A DNA stretch of 50,152 bases, from assembly GCA_963722445.1 (NCBI GenBank), contig CAVRMZ010000065.1:1-50152 (forward strand). Direction: 5' to 3'. The DNA is from an uncultured Bacilli bacterium (GTDB lineage Bacteria > Bacillota_I > Bacilli_A > RFN20 > CAG-826). The position numbers and the translations under genes are program-made. Below, piece after piece: positions 20,319 through 49,565 of the stretch (positions are counted from its first letter, which is position 1; each line of letters begins with the position of its first letter). Below the pieces are notes generated by a model. That model had not been told where the DNA came from, did not search any database, and saw nothing but the letters and a program-made list of their open reading frames with translations.

Positions 20319-21107
20319 ATGATTTCCACGAAGATCGCTTTTTTCGATATTGATTGGACGCTATACGATCATAAGAACAATCAATGGTCATTAAGCGCCT
20401 TAGAGGCGATTAAACAGCTGAAGAAAAAAGGCATCAAATGTTTTATTTGCACATCTAGGCCATATGATTCGCTAAAACAGTTTGGAACACTAGACCTCGG
20501 AATTGATTGGGACGGCTATATTGCATCCGCTGGTGGAGTGGCAGTGGTTGGCAACCGGTATTTACGGAAGATGGTTATGAACCCCCATGATGTTTACGAC
20601 TTGATAGCGGAGATTCGAAAACAAAATCTAACTCTCGAAGTTGTGGATCTGAAAAAAAGAAAATTAATTTTTCCACAGACCGAGCAATCTATAGAATATT
20701 ATAAAATTTTTAAAGAAGCGGTTCCTCCGGTTCAACCCTACAAGGGGGAAGAGGCCATTGCCCTCAATCTTTTTTCGTCTTCGGATACCGATTCCGTTGT
20801 TTTCCGAAATTTTCCGCATTTGTTTTTCTTCCGATATTCCCCTATTTCGGTTGATGTAACGTCGGCTCCCCATGAAAAAGGTATGGCAATCCCTTCCATC
20901 CTTGATTCCTTTGGATTCAAAAAAGAAGAATCGGTCGGTTTTGGGGACGATCTTCAAGACATTTCGTTTTGCAAAGAAGTTGGCCGTTTTGTTTGCATGG
21001 GGAACGGCAAGGAAGATTTAAAGGCCGTCAGCGATTTTGTCACGACCCCTGTATGGGACAATGGCGTGGCCAATGGTCTTCGCTTTCTTGGTTTGGTCGA
21101 TAAGTAA
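20319..21107 (+). CDS. Cof-type HAD hydrolase
   Basis: FFDIDWTL, TSRP, K and GFGDDLQD/MGNG HAD motifs. Confidence 0.9.
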   Translation: MISTKIAFFDIDWTLYDHKNNQWSLSALEAIKQLKKKGIKCFICTSRPYDSLKQFGTLDLGIDWDGYIASAGGVAVVGNRYLRKMVMNPHDVYDLIAEIRKQNLTLEVVDLKKRKLIFPQTEQSIEYYKIFKEAVPPVQPYKGEEAIALNLFSSSDTDSVVFRNFPHLFFFRYSPISVDVTSAPHEKGMAIPSILDSFGFKKEESVGFGDDLQDISFCKEVGRFVCMGNGKEDLKAVSDFVTTPVWDNGVANGLRFLGLVDK

Positions 21108-21244
21108 CGCTGCAATAATGCCTGTCTTCTTTCTTGGGCAATTCTAGCTGCGGATTCTTTTCCTACGCTTTGGATTCCGCAATCCCCCCTTGCGTTACAA
21201 AGGCTTTTTAGTTTCCTACAATGTTCGTGTCGGGAGGGAAAAAC

Positions 21245-21391
21245 ATGAAAATGAATTTACAAAATACGCCTTATAAACGAGAGCCACATACGTTCTTTTT
21301 GGCTCTTTGGCCAGGATGCACGTTTTCTTCAATGGTTTCAAAGCCATGTTATTTTGGGAACAACGATGATTTAAAAGCCACGGGAAACTAA
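21245..21391 (+). CDS. Small ORF, 48 aa (MKMNLQNTPYKREPHTFFLALWPGCTFSSMVSKPCYFGNNDDLKATGN); possible leader peptide
   Basis: GGGAGG at 21232-21237, 7 nt before the ATG, with a terminator 21 nt after the stop. Not in the ORF track (under 60 aa). Confidence 0.45.
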   Translation: MKMNLQNTPYKREPHTFFLALWPGCTFSSMVSKPCYFGNNDDLKATGN

Positions 21392-21412
21392 CCGAATAAT
21401 AGCAATTCCCGC

Positions 21413-21436
21413 AAAAGCCCTTTCGAGGGCTTTTTT
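21413..21436 (+). terminator. Intrinsic terminator directly upstream of the decarboxylase fusion
   Basis: AAAAGCCCT-TTCG-AGGGCTTTT followed by TT. Confidence 0.85.
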
Positions 21437-21479
21437 GTTCGCTTTTTCCCTGCTTTCGTGTAATATGTTTTACGAAGTT

Positions 21480-24092
21480 ATGGCAAAACTCGATCAACGT
21501 AAAACCCCATTCCTTACGGCTCTCAAGGAATACATTTCGGATGACATTTCCCCCTTCGATGTCCCAGGACATCACATGGGGAATATTGATAATGCCGCAA
21601 CTGAGCTATTAGGAAATGAAGTCTATCGCTGTGATGTCAATGCCCCAATCGGTTTAGATAATTTGGCCAAACCTTCTGGCGTTATTTTGGAATCCGAAAA
21701 ACTTTTGGCTGAGGCTTGTGGCGCTGATGAGGCTTTCTTCCTTGTTAATGGCACCAGCAGTGGAATCATTGCGATGTTTTTGACTTCTGTAAGGGCAGGC
21801 GAAAAAGTCATTCTCCCTCGGAATTGCCATAAGTCAGTCATCAATGCTTTGATTCTTTGCGGCGCCGTTCCGGTTTATGTTATGCCGGAAATTGATAACG
21901 ATCTCGAAATTGCCAATCAGCCTTCTCTTGAGGATTGGCAAAAGGCGATCGCCGATAACCCTTCGGCCAAAGCCGTTTTTGTCATCAATCCCACCTATTT
22001 TGGAGCCATAGGCCCTCTTAAGGATATCGTGACGTTGGCCCATAAAAACCATATGGTGGTTCTCGTCGACGAAGCTCATGGTGCCCATTATTATTTCAAA
22101 TGCAATAGCTGCCCGCTCTCTGCGATGGCTGCGGGCGCCGATATGTCAGCGGCTTCATTCCACAAGACGGTTGGCTCTTTAACGCAAAGTTCCGTTCTTC
22201 TTCTTCATACAGGCGCCTTCCAGAGGGCCGATGTTCAAAAGAGCCTCAACATCATCAACACGACCTCCCCCTCGAGCTTATTAATGGCTTCCATTGATGC
22301 CGCAAGGAGCTACATGGCTTCCAACGAAGGAGCCAAAGCCATGGCTGAGACATATGAACTTGCCGCCTACGCCCGGTCGGAGATTCACAAAATTCCCGGT
22401 TTTCTTGATGAAGGAAAGGCTTATTTTTTAACCCATGGTTGCTTTGATTACGATGAAAGCAAGTTGGTCATTGGCTTGGACCGTCTCGATATGGACGGGT
22501 TCCAGCTATATCATTTGCTCAAAGATAAATACGAAATCATGATGGAGTTGGCAGAAACCTATGCGATTTTGGGCATTTTCGCCATTGGAACAAAAAAGGA
22601 GCACGTTGATCGTTTGATCAAAGCCCTTCAAGAGATTTCAGCTGAGCATTTTAAGCCAGAAGTCGTTTATCCAGTTCATCATTTCGATAATTCCTTTCCA
22701 TTTATGCTTCTCCGCCCCCGTGCTGCCTTTCATGCTCCCGGAGTCGTGAAGCCGGTTTCGGAATGCAATGGCGCTATTTCCAAAGAGCAAGTCATGATGT
22801 ACCCGCCTGGAATTCCTTTAATTGTTCCTGGAGAAGTCTGGACTCAGGAACTCATTGAGAGAATTGAGCACTACGAAGTCTTAGGAATTAAGCTTCTTTC
22901 GGCCTATAACAACGGTTATGAAGTGGTGGATCTCGCTAAATGGTCTCATTTTGCAACGTATGAGCGCAAGTTAAAAGCCTATTTGGAAAATCGTCGGACC
23001 ACGCCAACAAACGATGGCTTTCATCTTCCCTTTGAAGGCTTGGCTCACGAGAAAACCTTGGTTCTTATTCCTTTTCGTGGGGACACATGGCGGAATAAAG
23101 CCATTCCTGCCCAGGAAGCTTTCAAAGAAGTTATCAAGGCCATCGCCCTTCATGAAAAAGTGGTGGTGGGTGTTCACCCCGCGATTTATAAAAACGTAGC
23201 TCCTAAGTACCGCGGCATAAAAAACATAGAACTATTGCCTATTCGTTATGATGACGCTTGGGCTCGCGATAACATGCCTTTGTTTGTCACGAACGGGAAA
23301 GCTCTTAGGACGGTTGATTTCCGTTTCAACGCTTGGGGTGGGAACTATGACGGCCTATACCGCAATTACCAAGACGATGATCATTTAGCCGCCCGTATTT
23401 CAAAGAAATGGGATCTGCCGAATTACTATTTGCCTAATTTTGTCTTAGAAGGGGGCTCCATCGCCGTGGATGGCGAAGGAACGCTCATCACAACCGAAGC
23501 ATGTCTTTTATCCAAAGGTCGAAATCCGGCTTTCAGCAAATCGCAGATCGAAGAAATACTGGCGGCTTATCTCGGAGTCCAAAAAGTTATTTGGGTTCCT
23601 CATGGAATCTATCAAGACGAAACAGACGAACACGTTGATAACATGATTTCGTTTATTAAACCTGGCGAAGTTGTGATGGCTTGGACAAATGATGAAACCG
23701 ATCCTCAATATGAATATTGCGCCGAAACGTTTGAGGCTCTTAAAAATGCCACGGACGCCAAAGGAAGGAAGCTCATGATTCATAAGATGCTTCTTCCTAA
23801 CCCGCCGCTTTTCCTTACGGCCGAAGAGTCGAAAGGGCTTTTGAATTCCTCTTCGACTCTTGCCAAACGGGAACCGGGAAGAAGATTAGCGGCTTCTTAT
23901 ATAAATTATTATCAAGGGGAAGACTTTGTTGTGATGCCAGCTTTTGGGGTCAAAGAAGATTTACCGGCCTTTGAAGAAATGAAAAAGTTATATCCTAATA
24001 AAGTGATCCATCAGATAAACACCAAGGAGATTCTTCTTGGCGGCGGGAACATCCATTGCATCACGATGCAAGTTCCCACAAAGGAGGAATAG
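21480..24092 (+). CDS. speA-aguA: Fusion of a PLP-dependent Arg/Lys/Orn decarboxylase with agmatine deiminase
   Basis: N-half: FDVPGH, VDEAHGAH, SFHKT (PLP Lys) and MYPPGIP. C-half: WARD, FNAWGG, LEGGSI, DEHVD, ASYIN and GGGNIHCITMQ (catalytic Cys). One uninterrupted frame. Confidence 0.92.
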   Translation: MAKLDQRKTPFLTALKEYISDDISPFDVPGHHMGNIDNAATELLGNEVYRCDVNAPIGLDNLAKPSGVILESEKLLAEACGADEAFFLVNGTSSGIIAMFLTSVRAGEKVILPRNCHKSVINALILCGAVPVYVMPEIDNDLEIANQPSLEDWQKAIADNPSAKAVFVINPTYFGAIGPLKDIVTLAHKNHMVVLVDEAHGAHYYFKCNSCPLSAMAAGADMSAASFHKTVGSLTQSSVLLLHTGAFQRADVQKSLNIINTTSPSSLLMASIDAARSYMASNEGAKAMAETYELAAYARSEIHKIPGFLDEGKAYFLTHGCFDYDESKLVIGLDRLDMDGFQLYHLLKDKYEIMMELAETYAILGIFAIGTKKEHVDRLIKALQEISAEHFKPEVVYPVHHFDNSFPFMLLRPRAAFHAPGVVKPVSECNGAISKEQVMMYPPGIPLIVPGEVWTQELIERIEHYEVLGIKLLSAYNNGYEVVDLAKWSHFATYERKLKAYLENRRTTPTNDGFHLPFEGLAHEKTLVLIPFRGDTWRNKAIPAQEAFKEVIKAIALHEKVVVGVHPAIYKNVAPKYRGIKNIELLPIRYDDAWARDNMPLFVTNGKALRTVDFRFNAWGGNYDGLYRNYQDDDHLAARISKKWDLPNYYLPNFVLEGGSIAVDGEGTLITTEACLLSKGRNPAFSKSQIEEILAAYLGVQKVIWVPHGIYQDETDEHVDNMISFIKPGEVVMAWTNDETDPQYEYCAETFEALKNATDAKGRKLMIHKMLLPNPPLFLTAEESKGLLNSSSTLAKREPGRRLAASYINYYQGEDFVVMPAFGVKEDLPAFEEMKKLYPNKVIHQINTKEILLGGGNIHCITMQVPTKEE

Positions 24093-24979
24093 CCATGTTA
24101 ACCAAAGTCGCCATCACTCAATTCTCGATGGACGATAATTATGATAAAAACATTGCAAAAGCCGATCAAATTATAGAAAAATCCGTTGCTAAAGGAGCCA
24201 AAATCGTTTTGCTTCCTGAACTTTTTGAGCGGCATTATTTTTGCCAAACCGAAAACTATGAGAACTTCAAATTAGCGGAATCCGCTATTTCTTCAAAAAC
24301 TTTAAGGCACTATCAAGAAATTGCCAAAAAGAATCAGGTGGTTCTCCCAATTTCCTTTTTTGAAAAAGAAGGGAACTGTTTTTTTAATTCCTTGGCCATG
24401 ATAGACGCTGACGGAAGAATCTTAGGAATTTATCGCAAGAGCCATATTCCAACAGGGGAATGTTATGAAGAGAAATTTTATTTTACCCCAGGGGATACGG
24501 GCTTTATGGTTTTCAAAACTTCGGCAGGACGTCTTGGCATTGGAATTTGCTGGGATCAGTGGTTCCCAGAAACCGCGCGAATCTTGGCGCTTAAAGGTGC
24601 CGAGATGCTGCTTTTCCCCACTGCCATTGGGAGCGAGCCCGTTCTTCCTAAGGACAGCAAGAATCACTGGCAGAATGTTATGCGGGGTCATGCAGCCGCT
24701 AACATCATGCCGGTAATAACTTCGAATAGAGTCGGAATCGAGAAAATTGGATCCTCATCACTGAAGTTTTATGGCTCCTCTTTCATTGCCGACCAACATG
24801 GTGAAATCGCTGTAGAAATGAATCGGGTCGAAGAAGGTTTCAAGACCGCCGATTTTGATTTAAAAGCCATCTTTGAAGAACGGTATAGTTGGGGCGTTTT
24901 TAGAGATAGGCGCTTGGATCTTTATGGCGATTTATTGAAGAACGACTCTTCAAGAAACTTCAAAACGAAAAAACGATAA
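24086..24979 (+). CDS. aguB: N-carbamoylputrescine amidase
   Basis: Nitrilase-fold triad LPELF / YRKSHIP / ICWDQWFPE; YEEKFYFTPGD; PTAIGSEP; AAAGGAGG RBS; overlaps the stop of the deiminase fusion. Confidence 0.92.
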   Translation, partial: GIAMLTKVAITQFSMDDNYDKNIAKADQIIEKSVAKGAKIVLLPELFERHYFCQTENYENFKLAESAISSKTLRHYQEIAKKNQVVLPISFFEKEGNCFFNSLAMIDADGRILGIYRKSHIPTGECYEEKFYFTPGDTGFMVFKTSAGRLGIGICWDQWFPETARILALKGAEMLLFPTAIGSEPVLPKDSKNHWQNVMRGHAAANIMPVITSNRVGIEKIGSSSLKFYGSSFIADQHGEIAVEMNRVEEGFKTADFDLKAIFEERYSWGVFRDRRLDLYGDLLKNDSSRNFKTKKR

Positions 24980-45837: not shown

Positions 45838-46903
45838 CGACCCCCACAACAAGAGCGTGCTGTTCAGCGTGGAAGCCTACGAGCAGGCGAATGCCGCCAA
45901 GTTCACGGATGGGCTGTTCTGCGTGGTGTTTGACGAAAAAGAAAAGCACTTCACACAAATCCCCTTGTCGCGGATCAACGGCATCCAGTGTAATCCGAAT
46001 GACCCGATGGACTTGTGGGCAATCCAGACTACTTGGAACGGCAACCCGCAAACGTGGATCAAACTGGCACGCAACCGAGAGCGCACCCTGAAGTTGCAGT
46101 CTGGTGAAACAGTGGCGCGTTCAGTTCGGGCTTACGTGAGTCATACGAAGCGACAGTCGGGTTGGACTCTCGGTGTGCCTGACTCACTGGCAGGGCACAT
46201 TTGGGTGCTCACCTACAACGCTTACCTCCGTGACAACGCCGAGTTGGTTCACGCTTTGTCGAAGATCGCCTGGAAGATCACGACCCCGAGTGCTGCCGCC
46301 AACCAGAAGGCCGCGGGTGTAGTTGAGGGTTCTGGTGGTGGTATTGGCGGGACATTTGCCTCCAACGGTGAACTTGCTGGTGTCGGTGTGCCGTCCGCTC
46401 AAGTGAACTTCAACAACGGGCAGCCCCTCGCAGCCCTCGTAGCAACCTCGTACGGTGTGCCGGTGATTGCGTTACTGTCCTCCCCTGGTGCGACTGGTGG
46501 CTCCTACGGCGCGGCAACTACTCTGGATGCCCCAACGTTGAAAGGCTTTGAGGCTGTTCAAGACTCGTGGGTGCTGTTTTACGAGGAAATCTTGAAAGAC
46601 TTGGGCGCGAAAGAAGTGGAAGTGTCATTCCCCACAATCAGCAACGACCCCGAATACCGTCAAGTGAACTCGATTCTAGCGGCGATTGAGGGTGGAACTG
46701 TGTGGCGTGAGGAAGGTCGAGACGTGATCCTCGATATTCTCAACATGCAGAAGCAGAAGGAAGGGCTACCTCCGCTACAGGACCACCCTGATAAGAGTGG
46801 CACGATTGTGACGGGTTCAGCGGTGTCTAAACCGGGCGCTCCAGCAAAGGGTGCGGCGCAGTTGAAAGACGCCCCCACAAACCACGACAATGACGACAAA
46901 TAA
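45829..46903 (+). CDS. Phage portal protein, 5'-truncated, actinobacteriophage-like
   Basis: GWTLGVPD, ALSKIAWK, NGQPLAALVA, LLSSPG.TG and TLDAPT motifs resemble actinophage siphovirus portals as I recall them. The first 22 aa of the tracked ORF are host sequence. Confidence 0.65.
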
Positions 46904-46921
46904 CGTGGTACAATAGGGCAT

Positions 46922-47266
46922 ATGACGACTACTACGCACACGATGGAAGTGTCTGAGAGCGCCAGCGCTCTCGGCACTGTCACGGGTAAACGCCGCTGGA
47001 AGGCGCGCCTGATTGGAACGGGCCGAGGAAGTAAGGCTCTCTACACTCAGGAAGCCATGTCTACAGCGGCAGCGGCGTTCCCGATCGGCACAAAAGTGAA
47101 CGCGGATCACATGTCGTGGCGTGAGAAGGACGAGCGCCCCGAAGGTAGTATCACCCGCATGATTGGCGTGATCGCTACTGAGCCTGTGGCCGAAGCAGAC
47201 GGAGCTTACGCAGAAGTGGAGTTCACTGAAGAGTGGGCTCCCACGATTGAGCAAATCGCTCCCTTC
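46922..47266 (+). CDS. Phage capsid maturation protease/scaffold, 3'-truncated
   Basis: RLIGTGRGS..Y, FPIGT..NADH, ERPEGS and IEQIAPF motifs, directly after the portal. Confidence 0.6.
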
Positions 47267-48531
47267 AGGACCACGATGGCCCCGTATTTGGCGGCGGCCT
47301 CCCGGGCCACCTCCAGGCGCCGGTCCTGCACCGCCGGAGTGGAGGCCCCCAACAGGCGGGCCATCTCCCCGGGGTGCGGGGTGAGGAGGCGCGGTCCGGC
47401 GGCCGCCGCCAGAGAAGCGGGGTCCCCGGCCAGGGCGTTGACCCCGTCGGCGTCCACCACCATGGGGAGAGGCAGTTGCCGCACCAGGCGCCGCACCAGT
47501 TCCTGGGTCTCCGGGTGGGTCCCCAGCCCCGGCCCCAGGGCCAGGGCGGTGCAACCCGAGGCGAAGGCCAGAATAGGCTCCAGGGCCTTGATCCCCAGGG
47601 CCCGGGCGCCCGTCGCCTGGGGCAAAGGCAGGGTCATGGCCTCGGTAAGCTTGACTTCCATGATGTCGTTGAGACTGGCGGCAATCCCCAAGGTCACCAG
47701 GCCGGCCCCGGCCCTGAGGCCTCCCAGGGAGGCCAGGGCGGCGGCGCCGGTCTTGCCTTCGGACCCGGCCAGCACGAAAAGATGACCGAAGGTCCCCTTG
47801 TGGCTGCCAAAAGGCCGGGGCGGGATGAGCCGGCGCAGCTCCCGGGCCTCGGCCAGCTCCACCGGCGCCTCTCGGGCCAGATCAGGCGGAATGCTGAGGT
47901 CCACCCGCCACAGGCGGCCCACGTAGTCCCGTCCCGGCGGCAAAATCTGGCCGATTTTGGGCCAGCCGTAGGTCACGGTAACTTCGGCTTCGACGGCTGC
48001 ACCCAAGATCTTCCCGGTATCGGCGGACAAGCCGCTGGGGAGGTCCACCGCCAACACCGGCGGCCGCAGGTGATTCACTTTGTCGATCAAGGCGGCCAGC
48101 AGGCCCTGAACCGGCTTATCCAGGCCGGTGCCCAGGAGAGCGTCCACGATGAGGCCGGCCCGGGCCAGGTGGTGGACCACCGGATTGAGCTGGGATTCCT
48201 CCGTGACCTCCATGACTTCCAGACCATGGTGGGCCAGGATGTCCAGGTTTACTTTGGCGTCGCCCCGCACCTGGTCCCGCCGGCCCAGCAAAAAGACGGT
48301 CACCGGCTCGCCGGCCTGGGCCAGGTAGCGGGCCACCACGAAACCATCGCCGCCGTTGTTGCCCCGGCCGGCCAGCACCGCGACCTCGCCGGTAAGATCG
48401 GGGAATTCCCGCCGCAGGACCTGGTAGGTGCTGCGCCCGGCGTTCTCCATGAGCACCAGGGACGGAATCCCCACCTCATTGATGGCCCGGCGGTCCAATT
48501 CCCGCATCTCGGCGGCGGTGACCAGTTTCAT
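47257..48531 (-). CDS. nnr: Bifunctional NAD(P)H-hydrate epimerase/dehydratase, 3'-truncated at the junction
   Basis: LMENAG, GRGNNGGDG, DALLGTG, HKGTFG, GPGLG, DADG, TPHPGEM and VVLKGA motifs, after which homology stops. Confidence 0.92.
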
Positions 48532-48639
48532 GCCTCAGCCCAACCTTGAATTTTACCAGCTAAGATAACACACCTGTGGGGGGATTGCCAGGGTTGGCGG
48601 ACACCCCGGAACCATCAGCCGCTGGCAGTCAAATTAGAA

Positions 48640-48686: not shown

Positions 48687-49565
48687 CTAAAAATGATACT
48701 CCAAGCCAACGACAATTTTTTGATTGTCAAAATCGAAGTGGACATTCTTGCCGTCACCTGCGCCGCCTGATAATGAAGCGCTGACCGCCCGAGGTTAGAT
48801 GTTGAACGCCCAATTGCACATCCCATTGTTTGATATACTTAAACTCTACCAAGGCCGCGATGTTCTTAGTGAAATAGTAGCGCACCCCCACCTCGGTATC
48901 CAGCGAAAAATTCTTGGCCGAATCGTTCTGAAAATAAAGCACTGCCACTCCGGGGCCGATACCGATATAGGGTTGCAATCTCCCAAAAGGCACCTCCTTG
49001 TCCTGCAAAAAGCCATAGCGCCCCACAATGTGCAAGGCCATGGTCCAAATCAGGTTGCCCTGTGCCTCAGTAAAAATAGGAGCGTTAGATACCGGGGGCT
49101 TCACAGTGACCTGCTGCTGGGGCCGATTATTACTGGCAATGCTACCCTCGCCTTCGAAACCCAGGTAAGGGATGCTGTCTAAAAAATAACCCACTTTTAC
49201 ACCACCGACCGGACCCGGATCGGTCTTGACATTTTTGGCCGCGGTTTGAAGCTCCAAACCACTGGGGCTTCTTATTGGTTCGAAGCTCCAGTTAGCCGAA
49301 TTTACCAGAGATACGCCGGCAAAACCGCCATAATAAAATTCGCCGGGACCTTGGTACCCCAGCTTCCCTGGGCATCCGGGGGCTAGGACGACCTGTTCTT
49401 CCACAGCAGATATCCGCCCAGGGCGAGGACCGCAACGCTGGCGATGGGCACCGCGGTAATTTCAAGATTAGACCCTAAGGCGTTCGCCCGAGCTCGCGAT
49501 TGCCAGCCTGAAATGGCTAAACAGCAAACTATCGTTAAAATTGCCGTTAACTTGAGCAACTTCAT
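48687..49565 (-). CDS. Outer-membrane beta-barrel protein, broken by two apparent frameshifts
   Basis: Signal peptide in 49383-49565, barrel strands (GVKVGYF, LQPYIGIGPG, GVRYYF) in 48754-49404, and a third frame ending VHFDFDNQKIVVGLEYHF-stop (beta-signal). Confidence 0.7.

Follow-up and report, generated by a model that had tools for sequence, protein, structure and literature searches.

The 50,152-nt stretch of DNA analysed here (the window; contig CAVRMZ010000065.1 of assembly GCA_963722445.1, from an uncultured Bacilli bacterium) carries a gene in which a pyridoxal phosphate (PLP)-dependent decarboxylase and an agmatine deiminase are joined into a single polypeptide, followed immediately by aguB, the gene for N-carbamoylputrescine amidase. 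All positions below are counted in the window. Taken as a whole, it is likely that these two genes encode the complete hydrolytic route from L-arginine to putrescine, that the fusion has a single origin, and that putrescine is the final polyamine. The N-terminal PLP domain would convert arginine to agmatine, the C-terminal Cys/His/Asp deiminase domain would convert agmatine to N-carbamoylputrescine and ammonia, and AguB, translated from a start 2 nt behind the fusion stop, would release putrescine, CO2, and ammonia from N-carbamoylputrescine. The sequences establish the domain identities, the intact catalytic residues, the conserved fusion and its single origin, the overlapped state of the sister group, and the tight junction to aguB; arginine specificity, a biosynthetic role, the activity of either domain, and a possible kinetic benefit are the parts of this reading that we infer. 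The route by arginine decarboxylase (ADC), agmatine iminohydrolase (AIH, AguA), and N-carbamoylputrescine amidohydrolase (NCPAH, AguB) is well known with separate proteins from plants, Pseudomonas, and many Firmicutes. The window shares with it the enzyme families and their order along the pathway, and its first enzyme is again a short-form decarboxylase of the aspartate aminotransferase (AAT) fold, but the first two enzymes are one polypeptide.

In the list of open reading frames, the fusion occupies a single open frame on the forward strand (21435..24092) ending with a TAG stop at 24090-24092. Its likely start is the ATG at 21480 (MAKLDQRK), giving 870 codons (21480-24092), because the relatives align from residue 1-3 and the primer with which the Fusobacterium homologue was cloned encodes MSKLDQNK (PMC8503589). 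The parts of the two genes are as follows.

21480..24092, + strand: fusion coding sequence (decarboxylase, connector, and agmatine deiminase); both domains complete, full-length relatives at 53-90% identity
21480..22940, + strand: short-form ("ancestral") AAT-fold Orn/Lys/Arg decarboxylase domain, residues 1-487; Pfam, invariant K229 and D197, fold
22941..23027, + strand: connector, residues 488-516 (from W488 to just before PFEG); invariant residues, predicted helices
23028..24089, + strand: agmatine deiminase (AguA/AIH) domain, residues 517-870; TIGR03380, alignment to and superposition on 1VKP
24081..24087, + strand: Shine-Dalgarno sequence AAGGAGG for aguB, within the last codons of the fusion gene
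24095..24979, + strand: aguB, N-carbamoylputrescine amidase, 294 codons and stop; TIGR03381, CN_hydrolase

The decarboxylase half belongs to the short-form AAT-fold family. It matches the Pfam domains OKR_DC_1 at residues 9-304 (E 1.7e-67, 228.5 bits against a cut-off of 27) and OKR_DC_1_C at residues 425-458 (31 bits against 24.2). The N-terminal REC wing is lacking, the domain beginning at residue 9, and the free-standing orthologues are 485-507 aa long. The PLP lysine is K229 of the SFHKT motif (nt 22164-22166), exactly where the first-pass annotation of the window had put it (about 22164), while D197 of the DEAH motif (D197-H200, nt 22068-22079) is the Asp that binds the pyridine nitrogen. 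The deiminase half belongs to AguA/AIH: PAD_porph covers residues 516-866 (E 5e-102, Pfam), and the NCBIfam model TIGR03380 (aguA) is matched with 427.4 bits against a cut-off of 381.8 over model positions 1-356 of 357. In a full-length alignment, C860 (in GGGNIHC), the H718/D720 pair, and the substrate-binding D597 align with the Arabidopsis thaliana AIH 1VKP; their codons are at 23268-23270 (D597), 23631-23633 (H718), 23637-23639 (D720), and 24057-24059 (the catalytic C860). All six residues (D197, K229, D597, H718, D720, and C860) are invariant in 65 aligned fusion sequences, in agreement with the earlier statement that the deiminase keeps its Asp/His/Cys catalytic residues. The architecture proposed in that annotation, OKR_DC_1 and PAD_porph on the same protein, is thus present in one open frame together with OKR_DC_1_C.

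The product of the following gene was expected to be the N-carbamoylputrescine amidase, and it is: the score on TIGR03381 is barely over the cut-off (410.3 against 410.25 bits, NCBIfam), the Pfam CN_hydrolase match is strong in its E-value (2.9e-52), and the motifs of the Glu/Lys/Cys triad (LLPELF, YRKSH, and ICWDQWFPE) are visible in the translation. With these matches, the alignment to 1VKP, and the structure superposition described below, all three enzyme assignments and the two-gene layout hold. A spacer of 2 nt separates the TAG of the fusion from the ATG of aguB at 24095. Equivalent GGAGG-type sites lie within the upstream gene in nearly all related loci; of 69 loci, 68 have aguB directly 3' of the fusion or aguA, and it follows them wherever the locus extends far enough. 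Its start falls from -11 to +7 nt of the upstream stop in 68 of 69, a 4-nt ATGA overlap being the commonest form. Such a junction is typical of translational coupling.

The fusion is confirmed as a genuine gene structure. Its frame is also intact in 60 assemblies other than that of the window, which represent different species or genomes. Full-length proteins of ~870 aa with both domains, 58-90% identical to the window protein, make up at least 120 clusters at 90% identity. The 55 species-representative genomes with the fusion are all uncultured Bacilli-type metagenome-assembled genomes (MAGs) from gut, rumen, or digesters, some of them under evidently wrong organism labels, and the family that carries it consists of small-genome (1.0-1.8 Mb) uncultured Bacilli. 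As one open frame, the fusion is present in 19 of 151 sampled genomes of the window's order and in 10 of the 12 sampled from the same genus, one of which is a closed 1.06-Mb chromosome. The 61 full-length sequences used below are that of the window, the 51 complete ones among the 55 species-representative loci, and nine more that were fetched. In an exhaustive search of 1.84 billion representatives at 50% identity, only two full-length fusions of this type, P0121 and P0122, were among the best 150 hits. The AAT-fold ADC-AguA fusion is a single clade and not a widespread architecture.

The first-pass annotation had allowed for the architecture being already common and characterised. It proved common in the databases, by the counts of clusters, species genomes, and sampled genomes just given, whereas a characterising paper was not found: a full-text literature search returned none that describes or tests an ADC-AIH fusion. 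In public records, the proteins bear only the names "agmatine deiminase", "arginine decarboxylase", or "lysine decarboxylase"; P0121, for instance, which represents a cluster of 38 members, is named "agmatine deiminase [Bacilli bacterium]" by NCBI. A separate observation concerns the labels of six bins of the "H076xx-L1_cleanbin" series (loci L010, L017, L018, L020, L024, and L048). They carry the fusion operon in the same synteny at 64-71% identity under the names Escherichia coli, Prevotella sp., Roseburia hominis, Bacteroidaceae, Lachnospiraceae, and Holdemanella, which look wrong.

The segment between the two domains had been described as a linker of about 20 aa (nt 22933-22997, residues 485-506), but it does not behave as a flexible spacer. 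The distance from W488 to PFEG (residues 517-520) is constant in the 61 sequences, W488, Y501, P509, and D512 are invariant in the 65 aligned fusions, and the conservation of the connector is 0.61-0.68 against a domain average of roughly 0.72. An AlphaFold2 model built on the 65-sequence alignment (mean pLDDT 90.6, pTM 0.87) contains no segment predicted to be disordered and predicts connector helices at residues 489-493 and 495-504 with pLDDT 87-93. By sequence and model, the connector consists of the decarboxylase's own C-terminal helical tail and the N-terminal segment of AguA. The C-terminal half of the model superposes on the plant and Enterococcus faecalis agmatine deiminases with TM 0.93-0.96, rmsd 1.3-1.7 Å, and 41-43% structure-based identity (TM 0.96 and 1.3 Å over 367 columns for 1VKP), and the N-terminal half superposes on AAT-fold Lys/Orn/Arg decarboxylases, the matching folds being LdcC, LdcI, ODC, AdiA, and 2X3L. 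No entry in the Protein Data Bank compared with the model spans both halves. It is doubtful, although conceivable, that a rigid helical connector fixes the PLP and deiminase sites relative to each other, such that agmatine would be handed on without equilibrating with the cytoplasm; the conserved connector (W488, Y501, and P509 invariant) and the pTM of 0.87 fit a fixed arrangement of sites. Channelling of agmatine is a speculation.

The operon compaction suggested earlier is borne out by an evolutionary series within the same order, where three arrangements are found: separate loci for speA and aguAB, adjacent speA-aguA-aguB genes (in the genus g28 of family f7 and in the genome G132), and fused speA-aguA. 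The free decarboxylase of g28 (~506 aa) ends in a tail of 22 residues (W..Y......L..YYES.K) that can be aligned gap-free with the fusion connector; in the order's other free decarboxylases, the chain stops 5-12 residues past the conserved tryptophan. In g28, the aguA ATG, preceded by GGAGG, lies within the last ~8 decarboxylase codons in the +1 frame (TAT TAT GAG read as ATG), and gene pair and fusion are collinear in length, so that a single-nucleotide frame change would interconvert the fused and unfused states. In G132, the two genes meet in a ATGAATAA stop/start overlap. All 61 fused sequences form one clade in both trees (SH-aLRT 99 for the decarboxylase, 91 for AguA). The sister of the fused clade in the decarboxylase tree is the overlapped pair of g28 (95), and next out (99) are decarboxylases of the same family from genomes that also have an agmatinase-like gene at a separate locus. 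Judging from these sequences, the fusion most likely arose once, from overlapping adjacent genes, in an ancestor of part of one family. The starting state would have been adjacent speA and aguA with frames overlapping by about 20-25 nt, and a single-nucleotide frame change would have joined the helical C-terminal tail of the decarboxylase to the AguA N-terminus.

The fate of putrescine was examined in the window genome and near-complete relatives. In these 10 genomes, no decarboxylase of the alanine racemase (AR) fold was found, therefore carboxy(nor)spermidine decarboxylase and AR-fold ornithine or arginine decarboxylases are excluded, and no homologue of deoxyhypusine synthase/SpeY was found either. 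A credible enzyme of the saccharopine dehydrogenase type was not detected in the genus. Spermidine synthase was considered and rejected: the PF01564 matches in the relatives are partial (profile positions about 20-100 of 186, 19-39 bits) and were read as generic methyltransferase folds. Since the relatives lack credible enzymes for spermidine, norspermidine, or homospermidine, putrescine is probably the terminal polyamine in the genus; arginine would be taken up from outside. A different situation is observed in G003, a genome of the same family (genus g2), which is the only fusion-bearing genome checked with a real gene of the saccharopine dehydrogenase type (C2:298246-298677, 95 bits, within a 502-aa frame). 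An AR-fold decarboxylase was not found in G003, and the product of this gene could be a homospermidine synthase acting on putrescine.

Neither a source of ornithine nor an energy-yielding use of agmatine is evident in the carriers of the fusion. The arginase fold was not found in the fusion-bearing genomes checked, and a carbamoyltransferase (PF00185, OTCace fold) was found neither in the window genome (55% complete) nor in seven of nine near-complete fusion-bearing genomes, hence these genomes have no evident way of making ornithine internally and cannot run the agmatine deiminase pathway that yields ATP. The catabolic AgDI pathway of lactic acid bacteria, composed of AguA, putrescine carbamoyltransferase, carbamate kinase, and an antiporter, is thus distinct from the system described here, whose operon has aguB instead of the carbamoyltransferase.

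These results bear on the possibility that the module serves mainly arginine catabolism (with proton use and ammonia release for pH homeostasis) or the export of putrescine into the gut community, the cell's own polyamine supply being secondary. By the established chemistry of the three enzymes, the route uses one proton at the decarboxylation and releases two ammonia per arginine; the genomes are reduced and, by their record titles, come from gut, rumen, or digester habitats; and no enzyme for a further conversion of putrescine was detected. However, the operon contains no antiporter or transporter gene, its neighbours by Pfam being a HAD hydrolase and an MntP-type efflux protein, and no regulator or acid-stress context was seen. 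The lack of the carbamoyltransferase excludes the ATP-yielding pathway in most genomes, and in relatives the module is interchangeable with speA-agmatinase, the classic biosynthetic pair. A mainly catabolic or export role is, therefore, regarded as unlikely, and a biosynthetic one is preferred.

The substrate of the decarboxylase half deserves special consideration. Michael and colleagues have shown that enzymes specific for arginine, for ornithine, and for lysine all exist among the short-form AAT-fold decarboxylases (PMC8503589). The same work reports an ancestral arginine decarboxylase (aADC) that is just 50% identical to an ancestral ornithine decarboxylase (aODC), and it gives no sequence signature for specificity. 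We relied on the genomic partners of the orthologues. The decarboxylase occurs without AguA in 26 genomes of the order, and 25 of them have an arginase-fold gene, in 18 cases directly downstream of the decarboxylase; among genomes with AguA (fused, unfused, or alone), an arginase-fold gene was found in none of nine. One such adjacent gene scores 293 bits on the agmatinase model TIGR01230 (cut-off 174) against 106 on the arginase model (cut-off 228), and two non-adjacent copies of the same family, with 156-167 bits, still match agmatinase best. In total, 33 of the genomes checked encode the orthologous decarboxylase, and in 32 of them it is paired with agmatinase or with AguA, never with both. 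Because the orthologues thus go with one of two mutually exclusive agmatine-consuming routes, and an ornithine decarboxylase (ODC) would need neither, the decarboxylase half is very likely arginine-specific, as judged from this context. The pairing has a single exception, the 94% complete genome G005 (locus L083; genus g20 of family f5). It encodes the decarboxylase but neither agmatinase nor AguA and is a candidate for a changed substrate (ODC or lysine decarboxylase, LDC).

Several facts speak against the reading of the two genes as an arginine-to-putrescine route with a fusion of single origin. First, genomic context has misled before in this very decarboxylase family: Clostridium botulinum has genes for AIH and NCPAH, yet its homologue is an ODC; the homologue in Fusobacterium, joined to a dead arginase-like domain, is likewise an ODC; and the Leptospirillum ferrooxidans homologue, which stands beside speD/speE, is a lysine decarboxylase (PMC8503589). 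Second, the trees are quick-mode maximum-likelihood trees with several long branches, and in the AguA tree g28 joins another long branch. Third, the direction of the change, fusion or fission, is one that we infer, since a secondary split in g28 would fit the sister relationship just as well; such a split would have needed a ready-made ribosome-binding site and start codon. Finally, the window genome is 55% complete, and claims of absence rest on its near-complete relatives.

In a rival reading, the decarboxylase half would be an ornithine (or ornithine/lysine) decarboxylase, and the fusion would combine two separate entries to putrescine, one directly from ornithine and the other from scavenged agmatine via AguA and AguB, in place of two consecutive steps. 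Specificity switches are frequent among close relatives, an ODC does coexist with AIH and NCPAH in C. botulinum (PMC8503589), and G036 and G135, both near-complete genomes of this order, have AguA and AguB without the decarboxylase, which points to agmatine scavenging there. On the other hand, an ODC would leave unexplained the agmatine-consuming partner found in all but one of the 33 genomes, those unfused decarboxylases that stand closest to the fused domain either have an agmatinase-like gene as partner or overlap aguA, and in the fusion-bearing genomes, devoid of the arginase fold and mostly of carbamoyltransferase, ornithine would have to be imported. An ODC activity of the fused domain is, consequently, very unlikely, and arginine is preferred as its substrate. 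As to the long frame being an artefact of assembly or gene calling, with two adjacent genes wrongly joined in a MAG, the fragmented state of the window genome and the relatives whose unfused state is one frame shift away would favour it, but the frame is equally unbroken, with the connector residues invariant, in 60 assemblies besides that of the window, which stem from different studies and assemblers and include a closed chromosome. Together with the grouping of the fused sequences in one clade, this reduces the probability of an artefact to practically nothing.

Among known systems, the nearest operon is the polyamine operon of Streptococcus pneumoniae, where a short-form ADC, aguA, and aguB are encoded with spermidine genes in between. 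The operon of the window lacks spermidine and carboxyspermidine genes, and these were not found elsewhere in near-complete relatives. The g28 cluster (genomes G068, G128, and G044; loci L057-L059) has the same three genes in the same order, a decarboxylase 53-55% identical with the same C-terminal tail, and a likewise tightly spaced aguB, but two polypeptides instead of one. The ancestral AAT-fold decarboxylases, that is, aADC of the Bacillus subtilis SpeA type, aODC, and aLDC (J Biol Chem 2021, PMC8503589), are of the same family and size and also have no REC wing. The Fusobacterium aODC fusion, recovered in our searches as P0144 (782 aa), is likewise a C-terminal fusion of the same decarboxylase to an enzyme of a polyamine route. 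In that protein, however, the partner is arginase/agmatinase-like and has lost its metal ligands (PMC8503589), whereas the partner in the window is an agmatine deiminase, of a different fold, with all catalytic residues kept. Within the fusion clade itself, a diverged member was encountered, P0122 (863 aa, a singleton from ENA), with an intact, well-conserved decarboxylase and connector (about 51% identity) and a degenerate deiminase half, in which PFEG, WARD, and most other motifs are lost and PAD_porph scores just 28.8 bits; the case resembles that of the Fusobacterium ODC fusion with its dead arginase domain.

Two further proteins join steps of the same route. P0181 (1051 aa) combines an AR-fold ADC-like domain with a complete AguA (TIGR03380, 445 bits). 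It is encoded at L084 1793-4948 and L085 1893-5048, and the identical protein is present in two independent metagenome assemblies beside genes for a GNAT acetyltransferase and an F420 ligase; no aguB was called in its flanks. Its decarboxylase is likewise N-terminal to AguA but of a non-homologous fold, indicating an independent, rare event; at least two such fusions of a decarboxylase to AguA have therefore taken place. P0228 (670 aa, a cluster of 11 members) is a fusion of AguB (N-terminal) and AguA (C-terminal); it joins steps 2 and 3 of the route, whereas the window fusion joins steps 1 and 2.

Upstream of the fusion gene, two putative signals were noted.

21413..21436, + strand: terminator-like hairpin AAAAGCCCT-TTCG-AGGGCTTTT followed by a T run, 43 nt before the fusion start codon
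21462-21467: TAATAT box, -10-like, 12 nt before the ATG

The closest relatives have similar hairpins and a CGTGTAATAT motif at the same place upstream of the fusion. The hairpin probably ends upstream transcription, and the operon would then have its own promoter. The fusion gene has no clear ribosome-binding site, and, with the TAATAT box just 12 nt ahead of the ATG, its mRNA may have a very short leader or none. A 48-codon open frame at 21246-21392, with a GGGAGGG site, was considered as a leader peptide and rejected, being conserved in 0 of 16 related loci. Rfam at gathering thresholds gave no match in the window, and in 21050-21520 there was only a chance-level small RNA match (E 0.73).

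Far downstream, at 46900-48600 and on to 49400, the G+C content climbs from about 0.45-0.50 to 0.65-0.71, with long open frames on both strands, as expected at high G+C. The recognisable genes there encode a YjeF-type NAD(P)HX epimerase/dehydratase (47206-48531, - strand) and an outer-membrane beta-barrel domain protein (48754-49404, - strand). None of 12 genomes of the same genus has a DNA match to this region. It could be foreign DNA or the end of a chimeric contig; a Bacilli genome would not be expected to encode an outer-membrane protein.

The fusion is a clade-wide, uncharacterised rearrangement of well-known enzymes, with no new chemistry. What is added here is the precursor state with overlapped genes, the single origin, the structured inherited connector, and the complementarity of agmatinase and AguA. 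It presents a "Rosetta stone" case, in which a decarboxylase family of hard-to-predict specificity is tied to its pathway partner, and the fusion clade and g28 form a natural pair, fused and unfused, for the effect of covalent linkage on flux or on agmatine leakage. If channelling were true, the two genes would amount to a self-contained machine for putrescine in organisms with no other polyamine of their own making, and the non-homologous fusion P0181 would point to recurrent selection for coupling both steps. The single-function names in the records mean that pathway reconstructions counting one function per gene miss a step. Thus, a clade of uncultured small-genome Bacilli of the gut, rumen, and digesters is marked as likely producers of putrescine from arginine with two genes, which is of relevance to polyamine accounting in gut microbiomes.

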